From positions 45,016-109,015 of IMG/VR virus record IMGVR_UViG_3300031867_000018: a stretch of 64,000 nucleotides of DNA; one strand, given 5' to 3'. Source of the stretch: a virus (Duplodnaviria; Caudoviricetes). The notes beneath the pieces were generated by a model, which was given only the letters and a program-made list of their open reading frames with translations, ran no database searches and had not been told where the DNA came from. Positions 15,979 to 51,152 of the stretch are shown piece by piece (the stretch's first letter is position 1; every line of letters begins with the position of its first letter). A program made the position numbers and the translations under genes.

Positions 15979-16745
15979 TGTTACCTCCTACTTGTATATT
16001 CTCTATTCTTTCTTTGGCTATGTTGAAATAATGCTCGTCCAATTCGATACCGATGAAACGGCGGTTGAGCTTTTTGGCAGCTACACCTGTACTGCCAGCC
16101 CCCCATATAATTATCAAGAACGATATTATTTTCTTTTGTATAGGTCTTGATTAAATATTCAAGTAATGACATAGGCTTTTCTGTCGGATGTAGTTTCTTT
16201 GCGGGTGTGCTGAATTGTAAAATAGATATAGGCATCTTATCTTCATATAATTTATAGTTGTTAGCTGTTTTGTATGTATGTAATAAGTTATTACTGCCAT
16301 ATATTTTCACATTTGCCTTGCGTGGAGTTTCTCTTTTCTCTTTGATTGGAAAATAATTTATTTTTACGCCGTTTTTTGTATAACAGGCTTTAGCTTTGCT
16401 GAACACCATTATATTTTCTTGAACTCTACCCGGCTGATAATTCATTAACTGAAAATTGCTTGGTTTTTGTTTTTGCCATACCCAATCATACCTATACATT
16501 TCAAGGTTTGATGTTCTTAGTAAACTGCTGAATGGTTCTTGCCCGAAAAGTACGATACACGCATTATCTTTTATAATACGTTTGTACTGATTCCACAATT
16601 GGTCAAAAGATATATTGCAATCCCACTTGCAAGCAGTTATTCCGTAAGGCGGATCGCATAGCACCAAATCAATCGACTTATCAGGTATCTTCTTCATCAG
16701 TTCAAGGCAATCGCCTTGCCATAATTCAATATTATTAATAAACAA
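15965..16745 (-). pseudogene. Beta-class N4/N6 DNA methyltransferase, frameshifted at a G6 tract (16099-16104)
   Basis: DPPY and HPTEKP present; removing one G restores 'DNYMGAGSTGVAAKKLNRRFIGIELD'. Confidence 0.8.
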
Positions 16746-16796
16746 CGCCTCTCAATAATTTGTTATCAACACCTCAACATCTTTGCTGCGGTCTAT

Positions 16797-17612
16797 TTAT
16801 TCTTCATTCTGTATCAACATCTTTTCGCTTGCTTGTTTGTAAAATTCCTTTGACACTTCAAATCCATAACAATCTCTACCTAATTCCTGACAAGCTCTCA
16901 ATGTTGTACCTGAACCTGCTACGGGGTCAATTACAACATCTCCTTCGTCTGTAAAAATTTCAATCAGTTTCTTTAAAGTATTGACAGGTTTCTGTGCAGG
17001 ATGTATCTTTGGAATATCTTTGCCGTCTTTCTCCCAATTAAACCAGTTAAAAATCATTTTACCTGTACCTCTAATCGTTTTACCGTTTTCATCGGTCTGC
17101 GCACCGTTTCTGAATTTCGGCAGCTTATCACGGTACAGAATCAAAGCGTATTCTGTTGCTCCTACGACACGCATATTTGCTTTAAGCACCTGTGGACTGT
17201 AGTTTTTGATAAACACAAGTGGGATATTATGTTTAAATCCGTGTTTTTCGGCATATTTAATTACCATTGGCATTTGCTCAAAGGAACAAAAAACTATCAT
17301 ACACGGTGCGTCACTGCTTCGACCTCTCGCACCTGCTTTTTTTGGTTCTTTCTTTAAAAGCCTGTTGCAGAAATGGAAGTATTCAGCGATATTGAAGTTA
17401 AAATCGGTGTTAAATGCTGCTTTGCCTGCTAATTTACTTTCACCATTCTTATTGTCTCCGCCGTTATACCACATAGGGTTACTGCCATAGAAGTTAGTTC
17501 CGACATTATAGGGAATGTCGGCGATTACAAGCTGCGCTCTTGGAATACCATATCTTTTGTAGTTCTGAAAATTATCGTTATAAAGTTTACATTTTGACAT
17601 TTTGTTTTTCAC
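16797..17612 (-). CDS. Beta-class N4/N6 DNA methyltransferase
   Basis: DIPY catalytic motif, HPAQKP, DPVAGSGTT. Confidence 0.9.
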   Translation of the reverse strand: MKNKMSKCKLYNDNFQNYKRYGIPRAQLVIADIPYNVGTNFYGSNPMWYNGGDNKNGESKLAGKAAFNTDFNFNIAEYFHFCNRLLKKEPKKAGARGRSSDAPCMIVFCSFEQMPMVIKYAEKHGFKHNIPLVFIKNYSPQVLKANMRVVGATEYALILYRDKLPKFRNGAQTDENGKTIRGTGKMIFNWFNWEKDGKDIPKIHPAQKPVNTLKKLIEIFTDEGDVVIDPVAGSGTTLRACQELGRDCYGFEVSKEFYKQASEKMLIQNEE

Positions 17613-17806: not shown

Positions 17807-18562
17807 TTACTTTAAATTTGGGAATTGTGATTTCAACACATCTATAATATGAAATTGCTGAATTTTTCTCATAGCAATACAATTCAAATAACCTCGCCAA
17901 TCAAAATTTGATAAATATTCTATTATTTCAGACTTCATATCTTCGTTATGTATCTTAATTTTATATTCTGCGGAATAATTCTCTCCGTCTTTTAATATCT
18001 TTCCTGCTGTTCCGTCACCCCAGTGACACATACGAATATCAAACTCTTTGTCAGCATATCCTTTACTATCTTGCCGATATATAGATATGTCTTTGAGTTT
18101 TGCGGTTGGTTTCTTGTTTAATTCTCCCTGTACAGGTCTTCGATAAATATTAAAGCAACAATGTAATTCTCTGTCGGTGTAGGTATGCTTGTCCAAATCT
18201 TCGCTATAAATCAAGTCAAACTCATACATTGAATGAGTATTGTTTAGTTGACTGATAGGAAGTATAAAAGCTATATAAATTGAAAACGGCGGGTTTGTTA
18301 CAATAATATCCCATTTGTCTGGCTGGTATGTAAAGAAATCTTGCCCTTCCTCTATACAACTTCTGACTACTTGATACCCCCCCATTTTTAAACTGCGGTA
18401 AAAAGCCGACCACTCTGCATCACAAGGGCTCCAAATTATCTTGTCTTTTGGCAAATATTTTAAAATTGGTTCTACCGCATAATATGGAGTGTACGATTCA
18501 TCGGCTTTTGCAGATTTATCGCTGGTTAAATAGCCTATATTTAATGCCAATTTATCACTCAC
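17807..18562 (-). CDS. N6-adenine DNA methyltransferase-like protein (possibly a deletion fusion)
   Basis: 'DESYTP', 'WSPCD', 'GQDFF', 'TNPPFS'; in-frame G7 tract at 18377-18383. Confidence 0.7.
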   Translation of the reverse strand: MSDKLALNIGYLTSDKSAKADESYTPYYAVEPILKYLPKDKIIWSPCDAEWSAFYRSLKMGGYQVVRSCIEEGQDFFTYQPDKWDIIVTNPPFSIYIAFILPISQLNNTHSMYEFDLIYSEDLDKHTYTDRELHCCFNIYRRPVQGELNKKPTAKLKDISIYRQDSKGYADKEFDIRMCHWGDGTAGKILKDGENYSAEYKIKIHNEDMKSEIIEYLSNFDWRGYLNCIAMRKIQQFHIIDVLKSQFPNLK

Positions 18563-30068: not shown

Positions 30069-31334
30069 TTATACGAGATTAACCCGTAACGGGTGTAAAC
30101 CTACACCCTCTATCCCGTCCGCAAACGCATTCGGGAATACTTTTTTCATTATCTGATAACTGCCGTTTACATCGGCATTTATTTCTGTTCCATTATTAGA
30201 TACGAACAAACCTCTATGTACTCTCCTTGACTTATTATAGTTTGCTTCTATTGGCAATTCTTCATCAAGAAAACTTGTACCGCTGGTGTAACTTTCTTCG
30301 GTTTGTTTAAATATAATGCCTGCATTTTCACATTTATAAGCTAACCGAGATACAATACTTAAATATGGTATTTGTGTAAACTTTTGATTGTTTTGTTTAC
30401 CTATATCGGAATTTTGTTTCCAGCCTATGTTATATCCGCAAACCAAAGTATCAATATTATGTTCTATGCAGAAGTCAATAACTTGTTTTGTTGCTTTGTG
30501 AATATAGTTGTCTACTTTGCGATTACGCTTTGCCGTAAAATTCTTCATACGATTAGACCAATCTTTGCCGTTGTTTTTCTTTAATTCGGAACGCATTTGA
30601 GCGATCTGTTTATTATAATATTGGTTTATTGACTTCAAAGGTCTGCCGTTTATTACAAAAGGGTCTGTACCGCAGTTCGTTGTTATGGTCATTAAGTTAT
30701 CTACTCCTAAATCAATAGAAGCTATGCGGCTTGATGTATTGTTTGTTTCGGGTATACCTATTTCGTAAACCACTTCCATTTTATATTCTCCGTTTTGCGG
30801 GACAAAGCGTATTTGCATGAGCTTTGCGGTGTTTGGGATTTTGGTTTTAAAAATATTATTCATCACTTTCAGCGGTTTCCACGAAAAATAAATGTAATTA
30901 TCTTTGACTTTAAATTGATTATTGGCTAAAATCAAAATATAACGTCCGTTTTCCTTGTTGAGGTATTTTGGCATTTTAGGTCTTCCCGAATATTTTGAGG
31001 GATTTTTGCCGTAATCTTTAATGGAAGTGAAAAACGCTTTCCAATTTCTGTCCAAAACACGCAAAGTTTGTTGCCCACATGTTGACCCAATGTCTTTATA
31101 TGGTTCTGAATCTTTTACAATTTTACATAGTTCATAGTATTTTATCCAAACCGCATTTTCTCTTAACCCGTTTTCTTTTTCTTTCGAGGTTTTTATAAAT
31201 TCTTGTCGGATAATATAGTTACCATAGTTATATATGTTTTTTGATTTCCAACTAAATTTATCAATTAAAGAAAAATATGGGTTTGATGATTTTATGCGAT
31301 GAGATTCTATTCTATTGGCTTTCAAATTTATCAC
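30069..31334 (-). CDS. tnpB: TnpB-family RuvC nuclease (IS200/IS605 OrfB-like; likely TTG start at 31325)
   Basis: RuvC-I SIDLGVDNL; canonical RuvC-II Glu absent (VCGYNIGWKQ) with an alternative EESYTS; RuvC-III NADVNG; no Zn-finger cysteines; no tnpA nearby. Confidence 0.9.
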   Translation of the reverse strand: MINLKANRIESHRIKSSNPYFSLIDKFSWKSKNIYNYGNYIIRQEFIKTSKEKENGLRENAVWIKYYELCKIVKDSEPYKDIGSTCGQQTLRVLDRNWKAFFTSIKDYGKNPSKYSGRPKMPKYLNKENGRYILILANNQFKVKDNYIYFSWKPLKVMNNIFKTKIPNTAKLMQIRFVPQNGEYKMEVVYEIGIPETNNTSSRIASIDLGVDNLMTITTNCGTDPFVINGRPLKSINQYYNKQIAQMRSELKKNNGKDWSNRMKNFTAKRNRKVDNYIHKATKQVIDFCIEHNIDTLVCGYNIGWKQNSDIGKQNNQKFTQIPYLSIVSRLAYKCENAGIIFKQTEESYTSGTSFLDEELPIEANYNKSRRVHRGLFVSNNGTEINADVNGSYQIMKKVFPNAFADGIEGVGLHPLRVNLV

Positions 31335-32588: not shown

Positions 32589-33012
32589 TTAAGCATTGGA
32601 GATTACCTTTTTATTAACTGTTAATTCCAATAACAAATTATCTTTTGTGACCGAGGTTAGTGTGTTGCAATAACCATCTAACCTCGGTTCAAGTTGCTGC
32701 TTGGTTTTATTTTTTTCTGTATATCGTCCTCGCATTGCGACACAAATAGTATCACAGGAGTGTAACCGCCTCCCATTCCCATTGCGGCAGTTAGACAAGG
32801 ACAGATCCCGGTTGTTATCCATTTTTGATGTTCTTGATACCCGTTTCTTATAGCTATGATTTCTTTCATTTAATCACCTTTGGTAGGTTCCCGTGAAATT
32901 CCGATACGATTGTCGGAGAATAACCTACCGTTATTTGCGGAGATTTATTTTTTTTGCCTTTATCGTTTATGCAGACATTCTGATATTTACTTAGTCTGCC
33001 TGCGGCTGAGTA
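32589..33012 (-). CDS. Three further C5-MTase TRD-like mini-ORFs downstream of the C-terminal subunit
   Basis: 'YSPTIVSEFHGNLPKVIK' (ends 32866), 'ICPCLTAAMGMGGGYTPVI' (32678-32869), 'AMRGRY..QQLEPRLDGYCNTLTSVTKDNLL' (ends 32589). Confidence 0.65.
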
Positions 33013-33501
33013 AAATTTTCGGCTTCAATATCTCCCGATTCTATATATTCAAAAATTCGGTCTAACCCCGATTCAAAAGCACCGATACCCGAAAAATAGC
33101 TGCCGACTTTTAAATCGTCAAAAAGATATGGCATAGCTTTATAGAGTTCTTTAAATATGTAGTAAAGTACGTCTACCACGATAGAATTTCCTGCTTGCTT
33201 ATACAACTGCGTTGAAGATACGCCTGCCGACTGTGCGGCTTCAAAATCCTCATCATCAAACCCCATAAGCCGCCAACATTCTTTTGGTGTGAGTTTGCGG
33301 ATGCGGTAGTTTTCGGCTACATTCTCCGATTCTTCAATACGGCAAAGACCGTTGCTCTCTGCGGTTATTGTCGGGCAAGTATCTCCGTTATCCTGTACTC
33401 TACCTCGTCTTGTTTTGCTGTTTGGATATGACAAATCTGCCACCCCCCCCTATTTTACATTCAATATATCCTTTTTTGGTTGCTTGTTTAATTTTTGCCA
33501 T
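32991..33501 (-). CDS. C5-cytosine MTase subunit with motifs IX, X and then I; frameshifted at G8 (33443-33450)
   Basis: MAKIKQATKKGYIECKIGG / VADLSYPNSKTRRGRVQ; RKLTPKECWRLMGF; YKQAGNSIVV; C-terminal KVGSYFSGIGAFE. Confidence 0.85.
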
Positions 33502-34374
33502 CTTTGTCAACTACCAACAACCCCGTCCTTTCAGCTCTTAGAGAAGGAGCGTATTCATCATAAATCCTTATCGGTCTATGATTATATATTGCGTCTATAA
33601 TTACTATAGATTTACTTTGTTTTGTTTGCATATTGTACCACCACAAAAGGCTGTCTATTGCCGCCTTGCATTGTACCGAGAGTGGGCGATACCCCCCCTA
33701 TTTCATAAACTCTGCCTTGATTTGGATTATCTCTTGTTTTAGATTTGAAGAGATTACCTATCTGTTTTACTTGATTCATATATCCACCGTTCGATTATAA
33801 AAGGCTGCAAATTCCCACCAGCCGCCATATTTGTGAGAGTGGGCGATACCCCCCCCCGACCGAATATATACTGCGACTTTGGGATTTTACTCCTTGTTTT
33901 GTATTGCCTAATTTTACTACTTTGCTTTCTGTCATTTTGTTACCATAACCTTTGGTGGGTCTTTATAACAGGTAGAAGATATACATTGTACGATACCTTC
34001 TACTGAATATACCCTGCTTTTTTGATCTGAGCCGATTTCACCTAATTGTATCAATTTGTTATTTGTCATTTTTTCACCACGATTTTTGGTGGGTCTTTAT
34101 ACTGTGAAGACGGCAAGGTTGCCATGATTCCTTCCGTAGAATAAATCCAGCCTTGCTGCCCCCCTGTTCCTCGATGTATCAAGCGTATTACTTTATTCTC
34201 CATTTTGTTTTACCTTTACGATTATCATAGGTTTATTACCCCCCCCCCACTCATAGTTACGATGGTCGGGGAATATCCATTTATTGAATATATTGCTCCC
34301 CGACCATTGCCACCTATATTTTTGGGGTTGAAGTACGCATCGCCTAATTTTACTGCTTTGTTGTATTCTTGCAC
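33488..34374 (-). CDS. Array of six overlapping 45-55 aa TRD-like mini-ORFs (34374-34225, 34203-34066, 34069-33932, 33935-33795, 33779-33612, 33631-33488)
   Basis: Hand translation: shared pattern '(R/W)(V/I)YS..G(I/V)(S/A)PTL....GG..P.I'; each has its own start overlapping the previous stop; all are below the ORF-track length cut-off. Confidence 0.8.
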
Positions 34375-35261
34375 TCTACCACTCCATTCATCGGTTGATT
34401 TCCGAAACCTTTGTAGTCTCTTGCTAACAAAGTATTTGCAAACTCTGTTTGATTTTCAAATTGACTGCCTTGCTTGGAGATCAGTCCTGTGATTTGGTCT
34501 GTACCATATCCCACTGATGACGGTCTAAGCTTCCTCTCCCCCCTACGGACGGAATTGGAATATTCTTTATCCAGCTTTCCGCTGTCGAGCAGGTCTTGGA
34601 TAAGCTGTTTTGCTTTGTCGGTGTTGACATAAAATTTCTCGTCAACTTCATCTTCCAACATATCTCTCAAACGGAGACCGTTGTCGAAAGGTTCGGGAAA
34701 TTTGAATTTGCCGTTGTCAAGTTCTTTTTTGATAAAGATAAGATAAACACGTTCTCTGTTTTGAGGTACACCGTAATCTTTAGCGTTCAATACTTTGTAA
34801 TGACAGTTATAGCCGTACTCCGTCAATTCATCTATGAACATTTGGAATGTATCTTTGAATTTTTTCCCGACAAGGTTTTTGACGTTTTCATATATGCCCC
34901 AAGACGGTTTATTGTATCTTATAATTCGCAATGCTTCAACCAAGAGAGAACTTCTTGTTTTTGATATGTTCTCACTGCTACATTTCGGACATTTATCTCT
35001 TTTATCGAAATGTACGGTAAGAGGATTCCATTCGGATTTACAGTCTTCGCAAGTCCATACTGAGCCGTTTTGACCTCCTGCTATGCTGAAATCCTGACAA
35101 GGACTGCCAAAACACATAAAGTTGAACGGTTCTAACTTTGTTTCGTCAACATCGTTAATATCGCCTAAATTTTTACTCTCGTCTACATTGTGAACCGCAC
35201 AATAGCTTTTTACGGCATATTTATCAAATTCACAAAAATTTACTAATTCGTATTTTTTCAT
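34350..35261 (-). CDS. C5-cytosine MTase catalytic subunit (motifs II-VIII, lacks motif I)
   Basis: Starts at FCEFDKYA; GSPCQDFS, ENVKNL, LNAKDYGVPQNRERVY; ends in a TRD-like 'ANTLLARDYKGFGNQ'. Confidence 0.9.
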   Translation of the reverse strand: MKKYELVNFCEFDKYAVKSYCAVHNVDESKNLGDINDVDETKLEPFNFMCFGSPCQDFSIAGGQNGSVWTCEDCKSEWNPLTVHFDKRDKCPKCSSENISKTRSSLLVEALRIIRYNKPSWGIYENVKNLVGKKFKDTFQMFIDELTEYGYNCHYKVLNAKDYGVPQNRERVYLIFIKKELDNGKFKFPEPFDNGLRLRDMLEDEVDEKFYVNTDKAKQLIQDLLDSGKLDKEYSNSVRRGERKLRPSSVGYGTDQITGLISKQGSQFENQTEFANTLLARDYKGFGNQPMNGVVECKNTTKQ

Positions 35262-35317
35262 AACATAAGGAGTAAACCCGGATTTTCTGTGCGCACAAAC
35301 CTCGCTACTCCTTTCTT
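35262..35317 (-). promoter_or_regulatory. 5'-leader hairpin sequestering an SD-like sequence upstream of the C5 MTase
   Basis: AAGGAGTA/TACTCCTT stem enclosing palindrome TGTGCGCACA. Confidence 0.5.
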
Positions 35318-35321
35318 AGAT

Positions 35322-36058
35322 TTAATGTATTTCTAAATATTTACTCCACTGTTCACCCATTGCCTTAGCAATACCGGGAAATGTTTTGCTTCTTGCTTTA
35401 CCTCTATTTCCATCAAAATCTCTAACCATAAATTCATCAAAGGTAACAGTTTTGCCATTTTTGCATTTGTATTGAATCAAAGTTGGTTCAACTACATCAG
35501 TTGGCACAAGTAATGGCAAACCTTTTAACCACAAACATGTTGTTTTTTTGTGTGGATCGCCAAACATATATGGTTGAATAATCTGTTCAGGTTTTCTTAC
35601 AAATTTAGAATATGCAGGAAAATATTTTTCAAGATACGCACCACCCGACATTATGCCGATAGGGTTTTCGACTGCAATGTGTTCGCAATTTGCATTTAAA
35701 AAATTGAGAAAGAATTTAATAGATTCTTCTTGGTTGCCGTTATTTCTCTTGTTTTCAAAATGCCTTGCACCAGATACAGCTAAATCTGTGCAAGGTGGGT
35801 GTGCAATAATCAAATCCCATTTGCCGTCTATCCTATGTGCTTCTCCGTCCATTGTTTTAAAGACGATACCATAAAACATACTGCTGATTTGGTGCGGATT
35901 TAAAACTTCAAGGACATCGCCAAGTATATGCCATTCAGGATGCCCCCGCTGGGTTTTTGAATATCACAACTGTACGCTTCGTGTCCTAATTCACGAAAAG
36001 CTGCACACACTCGCTGGCTTTCTTCGCAAGCTACTAAAACTTTTAACGATTTTGTCAT
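35322..36058 (-). pseudogene. Divergent cytosine-methyltransferase-like gene, frameshifted at G5 (35943-35947)
   Basis: MTKSLKVLVACEESQRV..AYSCD; adding one G gives SGGHPEWHILGD and joins AHPPCT, VENP, RSKTFPGIAKAM. Confidence 0.75.
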
Positions 36059-38202: not shown

Positions 38203-39678
38203 TCACCGTATATTTTCTCTTATAGTTTTCATGTTCCCGTTATAGTAGTCTATATAGAAGCAATACAGCCGTTCAGCCATTTTTGTGTAATGTTCTTCAT
38301 CGTCTACAAAATTATCTATAAGCTCAATGTATTGCTCATCCCACGTTTCACTCCATGCTTCAAGCCAATCGACAAACTGGCTTGTCCGTTTTTCTTTCTT
38401 TAACTGGTTATAAAATTTTAAGTATGCTGGTAGTTCTATATCCGATGCCCCTATTTCTGTAACATAGAATACAACTTCCTCATCAGATAACGGTACTTCT
38501 GTAGCATCGTCTATATAACTTTCTTCTGCATTGATATTCTCTTTGGCTTCATCAAAGTAAGACAACCCTAAATCTCCCGTTGAGATAAAATTATCAAGAG
38601 CATTATCCATCATATCAATTCTTGCTTCAATATTTTTCTTTGATGATATATTCTTACTATCGTCCTCAACTAACGCCTTAAACTCTTTTGAATGGACACC
38701 TTTGGTAAACCATTCACACATAAACGATTTGTATTCTTCTTCTGTGATCACCTCATTTTCTAACATACTCAAATATTTATCTACATTCATGATCAGCACA
38801 GGAAAATGTTTTTTATTTACATAATCTGTATATAATTCTTTTTCGGGAAGAACATTGTGTAACGCAGTACATATTACCTCTAACCCCTCAAATGTACTTT
38901 CATTCCACCTATTTGAATATTTCTTGACCAATTTTTCTAATTCGGCAGGTGTTAATTTTGAGTATGAAAAATCATCGTATTCTTGACCAGTCAAAAGAAC
39001 TAAAGCACGAAGAATGAGTTCTTCATAAGCACTTTTCTTCTCTTGGGATGGAGCAAAATAAATACTTCCCGATGTAAATAAAGGATTGTTATTAATAAGC
39101 GATAATATCCTGTTCATCACAGGAATACTTGCAGCGATTTTTGATTTATCAATACTGCTCATTGCAACCCCATTATTCAGGTTGCTCATTATTCTTTCTA
39201 TGTCTTCTTTTGTGTAATCGGAAATATTTTTACTATCGAATTTATACTCAAGAATAATATCTTGCACATCTTCTGGTAAGTCATTAAATGTTTTTCCTGC
39301 AAGTTGAACTTCGGACATAACAGGCTCTACTATTTCTCCGTCTTCACTTTTCTTGTACAATGGAACAAAAACAGACGGGATATCTTTATGCAATTTCATT
39401 TTTTTTGTCACAAACTTCACAACGGTAGAAACTCTTTGTTTTCCGTCTATTAACAATTGAGGAACAGTAAAGTTATTATCCGCACAAGCTATAAACAACG
39501 GAGGAATTGGATCTCCCATTATGATCGATCTTATCAAATTAGATTCTTTGTGACTGTCCCACTGCCCTGCATATCTCTGAATTGAGAAATCCATTTCAAA
39601 ACTTCCGGGAGAGCCTTTAGGTTTGCTCATTTTTTTAATCAATCTTTCAACAACTTCCACACTTGGTTTTATTACCAT
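38203..39678 (-). CDS. DUF262 (ParB/GmrS-like) domain protein
   Basis: 'IQR...QW...LIRSII...PIPPLF', 'LIDGKQR', 'LNNG'. Confidence 0.8.
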   Translation of the reverse strand: MVIKPSVEVVERLIKKMSKPKGSPGSFEMDFSIQRYAGQWDSHKESNLIRSIIMGDPIPPLFIACADNNFTVPQLLIDGKQRVSTVVKFVTKKMKLHKDIPSVFVPLYKKSEDGEIVEPVMSEVQLAGKTFNDLPEDVQDIILEYKFDSKNISDYTKEDIERIMSNLNNGVAMSSIDKSKIAASIPVMNRILSLINNNPLFTSGSIYFAPSQEKKSAYEELILRALVLLTGQEYDDFSYSKLTPAELEKLVKKYSNRWNESTFEGLEVICTALHNVLPEKELYTDYVNKKHFPVLIMNVDKYLSMLENEVITEEEYKSFMCEWFTKGVHSKEFKALVEDDSKNISSKKNIEARIDMMDNALDNFISTGDLGLSYFDEAKENINAEESYIDDATEVPLSDEEVVFYVTEIGASDIELPAYLKFYNQLKKEKRTSQFVDWLEAWSETWDEQYIELIDNFVDDEEHYTKMAERLYCFYIDYYNGNMKTIRENIR

Positions 39679-48709: not shown

Positions 48710-50265
48710 TTATCCTTTTTTACTTCCAATAGCATCTTTGATTCCTTCTGCAATTTTAGTTGCTAATTTTACAGGGACAGCATTACCGATCTGAGTGTAC
48801 ATTTTATTCAGACTTCCGGTAAATTCGTATGATAAAGGAAATGATTGCAGTATAGCACATTCTCTGACACTTAATCTTCTCAGCTTATTAACATGGATCT
48901 CAGGGCTGGTCGCAGTGATCGTATCGCTTGGTCGATCCCAGTTAGTGATCCTTAAAGATTGCTCGAATTGTATTTCCTTTTCGACCATGGTAGTTACGAC
49001 TTTATCGTATTTATCATCGAAACCAAGTATTCTTTTTAGTTCCCACCAATCACTCGGCTTGGGTATACTTCCGGAATTATTATCCTTTCTGAACCAATGA
49101 CCTGCTGTATATGAATATCCGAAGTGTTCATCGATTTTTTTTGTAGTCCATTGAGTACCGTCACGCCATTTTTTTAAATAATCGCAGATATCATGCTGAT
49201 CAACTTCATATTTCCTTCCCCAGAAGGTATCAGCGACATTTTCGGAAGCGATATGATTTTTAATTATTATTTCATCACAGTCTTTATCGACTCCAAGTAT
49301 TGAATAAAATCCATCTATATCACAAAGTCCTGTCTTTTTGATATGTTCTTTGATCTCATTATTACTGATACAGATATCTTTTTTTGTAAGCATTTTATCT
49401 GCCAAAAAACCTATAGCCTGTTCGGTAGTTATAGCAGGGAGCAATTCATCGGAAGGCTTGGAAATTCCTTCTACAAAATGTGTTTTTACGGGATAGGGGT
49501 TTTCGACACCGATCCTGTTGCCGATTATAACAACTCTTTCTCTTGTCTGAGGTACACCGTATTCAGCGGCATTAAGAATAGCTGCATCTACTTTATAACC
49601 TATAGTATTACCGTCTTTATCCTTTAAATTTTCAAAATCGGATTTGATCATTTCAAAAACTTTGCCGTTTTCAATGGATAGTAAACCTTTGACGTTTTCT
49701 GCAACGAAAAATTTTGGCTTTTTATCCGAAATAACACGAAGCATTTCTTTATATAAGAAATTTCTTTTATCTTTCATAGATCTTTTGGTATTTGCAACCG
49801 AAAAACCCTGACAGGGGAAACCGCCGATTATAACATCGGCATCATCGGGTATATCACTATCAGATATTTTAGTTATATCCCCGTGTATTATGTGCTTGCC
49901 GATATTTTTTCTGTAGGAATCCACTGCTTCTTCAAAAAAATCATTAGCCCAGATTATTTCAAATCCGGCATTGACAAATCCCATATCCATGCCGCCGGCT
50001 CCTGAAAATAATGAAACTACCTTTAATTTGTCGGGATCATTCTGAATAACATATTCTTCATTTTCGTCCCTGACTAATTCAAAAATATCACTTATATCAC
50101 AATTAAGAACATTACATATTTTAACTAATACATCGGAGCTGACGATCTCCTGCTTTCCTATTTTAGCAAGGGTGTTGCTGCTGATCTTTGCCTGTTTACG
50201 AAGATCTGTTTTAGACATGTTTTTATCTATCAATAATTTAAGTAATTTATTATAACATGCTTTCA
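48710..50265 (-). CDS. XRE-HTH fused C5-cytosine methyltransferase
   Basis: N-terminal HTH; FSGAGG, GGFPCQGFS, ENVKG, PQTRER, RRLSVRECAILQSFP, QIGNAVP in canonical order. Confidence 0.9.
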
Positions 50266-51152
50266 TCTTTGTATTCCTCTCCATACACAGATATTTATTG
50301 TGTTTTCGGTCGGCACAATATCCTCAACATACAAATTCAAGAATGACCTTATAAATGGTTTGATTTCCAGTAATTCTCCTCTGAAAGATGTTCTAACTCC
50401 ACTATCGTCCTCTACGAATATGCAAAAATGTATTTTATATACTTTCAAAATTTCCAATATATCTATTACTTCTGACAGGGTTTTCTTTTCCAATTTTACC
50501 ACCTCTTTTAATTACTCTTGTTTGCTTCTATGGCTTCTTCCTCACTCACATATTCTATATTGTCAGATTTTCCAATGTAACTGTATGCAGTAAACATATA
50601 TTCTTCTTCGTTGTCAAAATTGTCACATAACGGCATATTACTCCCTCTCCTTTCTCTTTCTGTTATTTTTCCACAATTAATTCGCCTATTTCCCCGTCGA
50701 AACTTTCTCTGTCGATTTCCCATATTAATCCGATATATGCACACCTGAAAACATGCGAATTATTCTTAATCAAATTCTTTTTAGCACAATTCGGGATTAG
50801 AACATCGGGAGTGTTTATTTCATTTACGCAATAATGTATCTCACTTTCAACAAACTTGTCCCAATTTTCCTCAAAATCCTTATCAGTCGATGTTGTATGC
50901 TCAAAATAGTGCATCTGCTCGTTGAAAAAATCATACTGTGTGATAAATTCCCAAGATGTGTCATATCCAACATCGCTAAGAATACTAAGAATATCAACAG
51001 TTTCGGATTGAAGCAAGTCTATGGGTATGACGACAATTTTCATAAGACCGCTATCTTGTAATCCTAAAGATTTCGCTCCGGCTCTAACCAAATACTGTTT
51101 CACCTTATTTTTCCGCCTTTCCCTATATTTTCACATAAAATTCTCCGTTATT

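Follow-up and report, generated by a model that had tools for sequence, protein, structure and literature searches.

How a C5-cytosine methyltransferase could work when its catalytic part, its target-recognition domains (TRDs) and its last conserved motifs are spread over a row of short, mutually shifted open reading frames (ORFs) is the question raised by positions 32589–35261, minus strand, of a 64,000-nucleotide (nt) stretch of viral DNA. This stretch, the window, comprises bases 45016–109015 of IMG/VR record IMGVR_UViG_3300031867_000018, a 109,015 bp virus record with direct terminal repeats. The locus consists of an ORF for the catalytic motifs II–VIII (N-core), an ORF for motifs IX, X and then I (C-core), and a set of TRD modules, with six mini-ORFs of 45–55 amino acids (aa) between the two core ORFs and three TRD-like modules after the C-core. 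The explanation that we favour, at somewhat better than an even chance, is a multi-subunit, multispecific phage C5-methyltransferase with independently phase-variable specificity modules. A more particular proposal, to which we would give slightly less than an even chance, is that the free TRD peptides of 45–60 aa are exchangeable specificity subunits of a two-chain permuted core, each with a poly-G switch of its own, so that a lineage could display ~2^n methylation patterns.

The two core chains match Pfam PF00145 in complementary parts, the N-core with E 8e-46 (profile 81–236) and the C-core with E 5.5e-16 (profile positions 262–323 of 324), and the best solved-structure match of the methyltransferase core is M.HhaI. 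The N-core starts at motif II (NFCEFDKYA) and continues with motifs IV (GSPCQDFS), VI (ENV, within YENV) and VIII (QNRER), motif I not being present in it; the C-core carries motifs IX (RIRKLTPKE) and X (QAGNS), followed by the motif I region LKVGSYFSGIGAFESGL. In BLASTP comparisons with M.SPRI (K02124), N-core residues 4–298 correspond to SPR 27–332, C-core residues 15–100 to SPR 348–429, and C-core residues 111–130 to SPR 4–23, which is motif I. Since motif I lies at the end of the second chain, the arrangement is a circular permutation and not the plain split of a C5 methyltransferase given in the preliminary description of the locus, of which the two core chains nevertheless stand. By these sequence matches the enzyme is an exact circular permutation that has its break between motifs I and II and the order II–VIII, TRDs, IX, X, I; the canonical order from I to X in one chain is not found, and the cut between the two chains lies in the variable region, as in M.AquI. 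No length of any G tract fuses the N-core to the downstream ORFs, so the enzyme is divided into at least two chains, and these would have to associate to rebuild the catalytic domain. N-core residues ~68–98 (34970–35060) form a CxxC...CxxC zinc-ribbon-like insert after motif IV, which is invariant in all relatives and absent from M.SPRI.

Between and beyond the cores, the ORFs quoted in the preliminary description exist on the minus strand, its three quoted peptides are exact, and the three further modules that it placed after the C-terminal ORF are present as M8–M10. Its six mini-ORFs between the cores were correct for M2, M3, M5 and M6, which are whole, whereas M1 and M4 are frame-broken inside the module by a G10 and a G9 tract respectively. 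Likewise, the ORF 32991–33501 that it had taken as open through motifs IX and X has its ATG (33501) in another frame, and this M7 head joins the C-core, as one ORF of 169–170 aa, only if the intervening tract is G7 or G10; at the assembled G8 the head stops after 33 aa, and the C-core is open only as 32991–33443, from a GTG at the 3' edge of the tract that could start a shortened form of the chain. As assembled, therefore, the frame is intact in TRD0 (the module fused to the N-core), M2, M3, M5 and M6 and lost in M1, M4 and the C-core head. Poly-G tracts inside modules, which we propose as the switching device, had been overlooked in that first reading, as had the out-of-frame state of these three units.

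Comparison with relatives indicates that the mini-ORFs are maintained as separate units. A search of viral contigs with the N-core gave 192 relatives, of which 80 were kept. In 62 of the 80 the enzyme is one continuous ORF of 460–733 aa, in the same permuted order and with two to five tandem TRDs, and in 18, the closest relatives among them, the layout is split; a quick IQ-TREE maximum-likelihood tree groups the split loci as one clade (SH-aLRT 97) that lies within the continuous group and whose first branch is the window. Of 13 distinct sequences of the split clade, 11 have a methionine codon within the nine codons that precede the module start, as against 0 of 10 continuous ones (Fisher p ~6e-5), and the same junction types recur across the split clade. 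Several loci (L014–L017, L019–L021) encode TRD0 as a free ORF that begins MG(Y/C)GS, and the GTG start of the C-core stands in the same conserved context in five loci, overlapping the upstream stop (GTGA) in L014 and L038. Ratios of non-synonymous to synonymous substitution rates (dN/dS, NG86 method) are 0.13 and 0.085 for the N-core and the C-core respectively, and 0.23 and 0.16 for two free modules, TRD0 and the Q-type module; judged from these sequence comparisons, free modules and cores alike are under purifying selection. The suggestion that the TRDs are encoded as separate, conserved mini-ORFs is thus upheld by breaks at module boundaries in the whole clade, by the derived ATG starts and by this selection, and the neutral dN/dS that would have spoken against it is not borne out, the free modules lying at 0.16–0.23.

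Free homologues of individual modules recur, those of M2 in L020 and L021, of M4 as a whole 58 aa protein (P0003), and of M5 in P0002 and P0003; a word-indexed protein search with M5 returned three small proteins only, and is a poor guide to the abundance of free modules. M6 is homologous to an in-frame tail module of L032. When the continuous relatives were aligned to the window by tblastn, the high-scoring segment pairs merged across stops, which confirmed the coding frames and gave no clean module map. The continuous permuted loci (L009–L013, L023–L032 and L034–L082) vary in the number and order of their TRDs, and L032 has further TRDs fused after motif I.

These comparisons also make it very improbable that a once-continuous multispecific methyltransferase gene is in decay here as a pseudogene, or has been broken up by homopolymer errors in assembly. 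It had been anticipated that decay would be betrayed by relatives with one continuous ORF and by breaks at unrelated positions: the more distant relatives do have one continuous ORF, three units are out of frame here and homopolymers are error-prone in sequencing, but the breaks of the split clade lie at module boundaries, some of them homopolymer-free ATGA overlaps exactly at the boundary. Decay would also have to accommodate the same layout in 18 independently assembled loci of one old clade, the absence from every locus of a break inside the catalytic part of ~240 aa, and dN/dS of 0.05–0.23, while an artefact would have to recur in Logan's separate assembly of the possible source run, in which every tract length is identical.

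The poly-G tracts are concentrated in this locus. Five G/C runs of at least 7 occur in the 109,015 bp genome against 1.2 expected, and four of the five (G8, G7, G9 and G10) fall within 33443–34248, a clustering far beyond chance; two further G6 tracts at the locus lie in M2 and in the N-core. Each sets a reading frame. M1, assembled with G10, is whole at G8 or G11, and M4, assembled with G9, is whole at G7 or G10, the M4 stop and the M5 start forming ATGA at G8 or G11; lengths of the N-core tract other than G6 give proteins of 244–260 aa without TRD0. With the M5 tract at G6 or G9 the M5 head runs into the M6 frame (33488–33779) and gives a product of 96–97 aa, so that a slip may swap modules and not only silence one. 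Outside the locus, the fifth run of at least 7 (18377–18383) is in frame inside an EcoRI-type adenine methylase-like ORF (17807–18562), and a G6 run (16099–16104) lies inside an N6_N4 methylase ORF (15981–16745); the G tracts of this phage thus cluster in methyltransferase genes.

The same association holds among the relatives, where a coding-strand G run of 6 or more is present in 18 of 18 split and 0 of 62 continuous loci, and where the 18 split relatives have 34 runs of at least 7 in 46 kb of methyltransferase region, whereas their flanks have 2 in 136 kb. Where Gly-Gly sites are homologous, the codons of the continuous relatives are GGT GGT or GGT GGC (longest G run 2–3), and the split clade has mostly G5–G9. 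Tract lengths also differ between close relatives: in an alignment of seven loci of ~90–97% identity, homologous tracts are G6/G7/G9/G12, G5/G6/G7 and G7/G8/G9, and several of the small indels between such pairs are in or beside G tracts. Homologues of the N-core tract are G6, G7 or G8, with the same three tails, and those of the C-core head tract are G7, G8 or G9. Contigs from other samples, each covering part of the locus and being contigs rather than reads, have G8 in place of G10 at 34239, which is the in-frame length (X3), and G7 in place of G6 at 34538 (X2). The locus has two of the features by which contingency loci are recognized, namely frame-setting tracts within coding sequence that are enriched beyond chance and that differ in length at homologous sites in close relatives.

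The separate ORFs and the tracts make sense together. With an ORF for each module, a slip silences or restores one specificity and spares motifs IX, X and I downstream; were all the modules in one chain, those motifs would be lost whenever any TRD slipped out of frame. We therefore envisage an anti-restriction C5-methyltransferase of the multispecific Bacillus-phage type, permuted between motifs I and II, in which most TRD modules would be overlapping, translationally coupled mini-ORFs of 45–60 aa and in which G6–G10 homopolymers encode Gly-Gly in several modules, in the N-core tail and in the C-core head. These would slip in replication, each tract moving its own unit in or out of frame and the C-core head tract possibly switching the whole enzyme, and a population would come to carry many combinations of specificity. 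Such heritable switching could serve as a bet-hedge where some hosts have restriction enzymes that methylation blocks and others have enzymes that target methylated DNA.

The arrangement of the junctions bears on whether the modules might be joined after all. Modules M1–M7 are each frame-shifted relative to the preceding one. As had been described, most modules have a start that overlaps the previous stop, although M1 and M2 overlap (by 11 nt) only at the in-frame tract length and M8 lacks a start codon. Overlaps are 25 nt for N-core/M1, 20 nt for M5/M6, 14 nt for M6/M7 and, at the in-frame tract length, 26 nt for M4/M5; those of M2/M3, M3/M4 and M8/M9 are ATGA. The preliminary description had allowed for joining by frameshifting, and we consider it improbable that the modules are united into one multi-TRD polypeptide, whether through ribosomal frameshifting where the ORFs overlap or through slippage of RNA polymerase on the G runs. 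The M2/M3 and M3/M4 junctions, which form a 61 nt repeat (D1), read A-AAA-TGA, at which a -1 slip would give an in-frame fusion, and long G runs can cause transcriptional slippage. However, three junctions require a -1 shift and four a +1 shift, the overlaps range from 4 to 26 nt, there is no common slippery motif or conserved position among the relatives, all three frames stop between the M1 tract and the M2 start, and each module has gained its own ATG, which would be needless in a fused product. Two other candidates were rejected: an alternative genetic code, as both TAA and TGA stops separate the modules, their frames are different and the region is not opened by any single reassignment; and an invertible-DNA switch, as the modules are all on one strand with only two weak inverted repeats (73% and 87% complementary).

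In our reading the free modules would act in trans by docking between motifs VIII and IX. Three relatives (L014, L020 and L038) have a TRD fused to neither core, and in their subclade core dN/dS is 0.05–0.11 at saturated dS; constrained cores that lack a TRD imply that a working enzyme there needs TRDs in trans. The preliminary description had called for a predicted complex of both core chains with each peptide, and that with M5 passes its controls. The model comprised N-core residues 1–240, C-core residues 40–150 and free M5, with an alignment for each, and scored 0.88 compared with 0.01 for the best of three controls; the docking mark is attained in 58 of 80 solved complexes and in 2 of 110 mismatched pairs. 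The docking runs agree in at least 84% of contacts with a partner predicted local distance difference test (pLDDT) score of at least 80, and the N-core and C-core fold together with pLDDT 85–86. In the model M5 residues 24–38 contact motif VIII (residues 166–170) and the C-terminal M5 strand contacts C-core residues 44–51, so that M5 is predicted to occupy the canonical site of a TRD in cis, with its SPTL region against motif VIII and its last strand beside the strand that precedes motif IX.

A rather unlikely alternative is that switching is real but that only tethered TRDs (TRD0 on the N-core and M7 on the C-core) are active, the free mini-ORFs being off-states or a silent cassette store restored by recombination and slippage. 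The G tracts can indeed fuse or detach TRD0 and M7, and relatives have a tract length at which a second module becomes joined to the C-core. The store would find its traces in a 93 nt deletion that runs from one G tract to the next and merges two modules in L004 (6400–6530) compared with L003 and L019, and in the different module sets of loci with near-identical flanks; the 61 nt junction repeat, and the 21 identical bases shared by M4 and M5, tract included, could drive recombination, and the missing start codon of M8 fits a silent cassette. Against it, nearly every free module has a derived ATG start, the free modules are under purifying selection, the three relatives named above are without any tethered TRD and still have constrained cores, and TRD0 is stably detached in L015 and L020, with no tract at the site, yet conserved.

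Several points weigh against exchangeable, switching subunits. The association of tracts with the split layout comes from one clade and thus from one evolutionary origin, and the dN/dS pairs are phylogenetically non-independent, with dS saturated for many. Tract lengths are known from contigs only, and we infer the within-population heterogeneity that defines phase variation. The docking result may reflect memory of solved one-chain C5-methyltransferases with the TRD in cis (M.HhaI, M.HaeIII), and small self-made alignments were used for it; activity in trans is not known for any free TRD. Some units may be dead, given the defective starts (M8 has none and M1 has only GTG) and the truncation of several relatives' modules at G5 runs, and with the C-core head out of frame as assembled, the majority genotype may have the entire enzyme switched off.

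The closest known systems are the multispecific enzymes of Bacillus phages (M.SPRI, M.Phi3TI and the SPbeta group), which are among the best matches among cultured phages; their core is homologous, with 29% identity over the N-core and 54% over motifs IX–X, and they have the same short TRD modules with a (S)PT(L/I) core and a role presumed to be the same, self-protection against several host restriction systems. They differ in carrying tandem TRDs in one polypeptide in the order I–X, whereas here there are two core chains, mostly separate TRD mini-ORFs, interrupting G tracts and motif I after motif X; tandem TRDs in one polypeptide between motifs VIII and IX are absent from the window and occur in the 62 more distant relatives. 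Division of the catalytic motifs between two chains is shared with M.AquI, where they are cut in the variable region (PMC3404938), and with M.EcoHK31I. Both of those enzymes have one specificity, the chains of M.AquI holding half a TRD each and only motif IX being separate in M.EcoHK31I, and unlike the present locus they have no free TRD array, permutation or repeat tracts. Motif X precedes motif I in the chain of M.BssHII, M.Alw26I, M2.Eco31I, M.Esp3I and M2.BsaI, as it does here; however, the termini of type H enzymes (M.BssHII) are in the variable region (IX-X-I...VIII), and in the window family the break falls between motifs I and II. All natural permuted C5 enzymes covered by a 2018 survey have their permutation in the variable region (PMC5944983), and the family thus adds a permutation topology that is not listed there.

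In bacterial contingency loci (phasevarions; Type III mod and Type I hsdS/hsdM), the length of a homopolymer within the coding sequence shifts the frame and switches methylation, as we propose here. Those systems are cellular, methylate N6-adenine and usually have one tract that turns a whole gene on or off, whereas this is a phage C5 enzyme with up to six tracts, one for each specificity unit. By analogy only, the logic would be similar to that of Type I HsdS, with a catalytic core and exchangeable, separately encoded, sometimes phase-variable specificity subunits, although the HsdS proteins and their fold are unrelated, large and furnished with two TRDs, and the methylation is of adenine. 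A literature search, of incomplete coverage and so no proof that none exists, turned up phase-variable methyltransferases of bacteria as well as two-chain and permuted enzymes, and found no description of a phage C5-methyltransferase with free TRDs or poly-G switches. Multispecific methyltransferases are a classic case of modular DNA recognition and are known only as single chains; if the proposal of exchangeable, switched subunits is true, the enzyme would be the first of the C5 class to have separate specificity subunits, the locus would be a phage-borne contingency system, and phages, not only bacteria, would use repeat-tract contingency loci, varying their epigenetic coat against restriction and methylation-dependent defences. 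Should free modules work as subunits, C5 specificity could be reprogrammed by supplying a 50-residue peptide, which would be of use in targeted methylation tools.

The features of the locus are collected in Table 1.

Table 1. Core chains, TRD modules and selected motifs and tracts of the methyltransferase locus (window positions; tract lengths as assembled unless stated)
Feature	Position	Strand	Description
N-core chain	34350..35261	-	303 aa; begins MKKYELVNFCEFDKYA; motifs II–VIII, then fused TRD0 ANTLLARDYKGFGNQ
N-core G tract	34538..34543	-	G6, 303 aa with TRD0; G5 or G8, 259–260 aa; G4 or G7, 244–245 aa ending GEEA or GGEEA
M1	34193..34374	-	GTG start (ORF 34225–34374, 49 aa); tail GNKPMIIVKVKQNGE in other frame; broken by G10 at 34239–34248
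M2	34066..34203	-	whole 45 aa mini-ORF; in-frame G6 tract 34159–34164; stop overlaps M3 start (ATGA)
M3	33932..34069	-	whole 45 aa mini-ORF; without G tract; ATGA overlaps on both sides
M4	33754..33935	-	ATG start 33935 (ORF 33795–33935, 46 aa); broken by G9 at 33849–33857; whole form GGVSPTLTNMAAGGNLQPFIIE
M5	33612..33779	-	whole 55 aa mini-ORF; in-frame G7 tract 33692–33698
M6	33488..33631	-	real ATG 33631 (ORF 33488–33646, 52 aa); core YDEYAPSL; whole, no tract
M7 head + C-core	32991..33501	-	head MAKIKQATKKGYIECKIGG, G8 tract 33443–33450, TRD remainder, motifs IX, X and I
Motif I, S-adenosylmethionine-binding FxGxG (LKVGSYFSGIGAFESGLDRI)	33054..33113	-	after motif X; C-core 111–130 matches M.SPRI 4–23 (BLASTP)
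M8	32866..33024	-	core GYSPTIV; open frame without start codon; stop overlaps M9 start (ATGA)
M9	32678..32869	-	63 aa ORF, ATG start; core GICPCLTAAMGMGGGYTPVIL
M10	32589..32822	-	VAMRGRY...QQLEPRLDGYCNTLTSVTKDNLLLE; third frame, overlaps M9

The public runs that contain the phage sequence are bovine gut metagenomes, and a megablast search of the locus against cultured phages gave no match. The gene content of the phage includes a DNA polymerase, a primase-helicase, an anaerobic ribonucleotide reductase, an integrase and tail proteins. There are at least six DNA methyltransferase genes, in window regions 15981–17612, 17807–18562, 32589–36058 and 48710–50284, the last of which is an intact canonical C5 enzyme with an N-terminal helix-turn-helix domain. 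Just downstream of the locus is an intact TnpB of 421 aa (30069–31334, minus strand; OrfB_IS605 and a Cas12f-like TNB domain). At 38203–39678, on the same strand and near the methyltransferase cluster, an ORF of 491 aa shows weak similarity to GmrSD_N (DUF262), with 32.3 bits where the Pfam cut-off is 33.2, and from this sequence match is a possible modification-dependent nuclease. The locus is adjoined by a second DNA methyltransferase gene (35322–36058, minus strand; phrog_757), which is cut into ORFs of 52 aa and 185 aa exactly at a G5 run (35943–35947); with G6 in place of G5, PSGGHPEWHILGDV would be read without a break.

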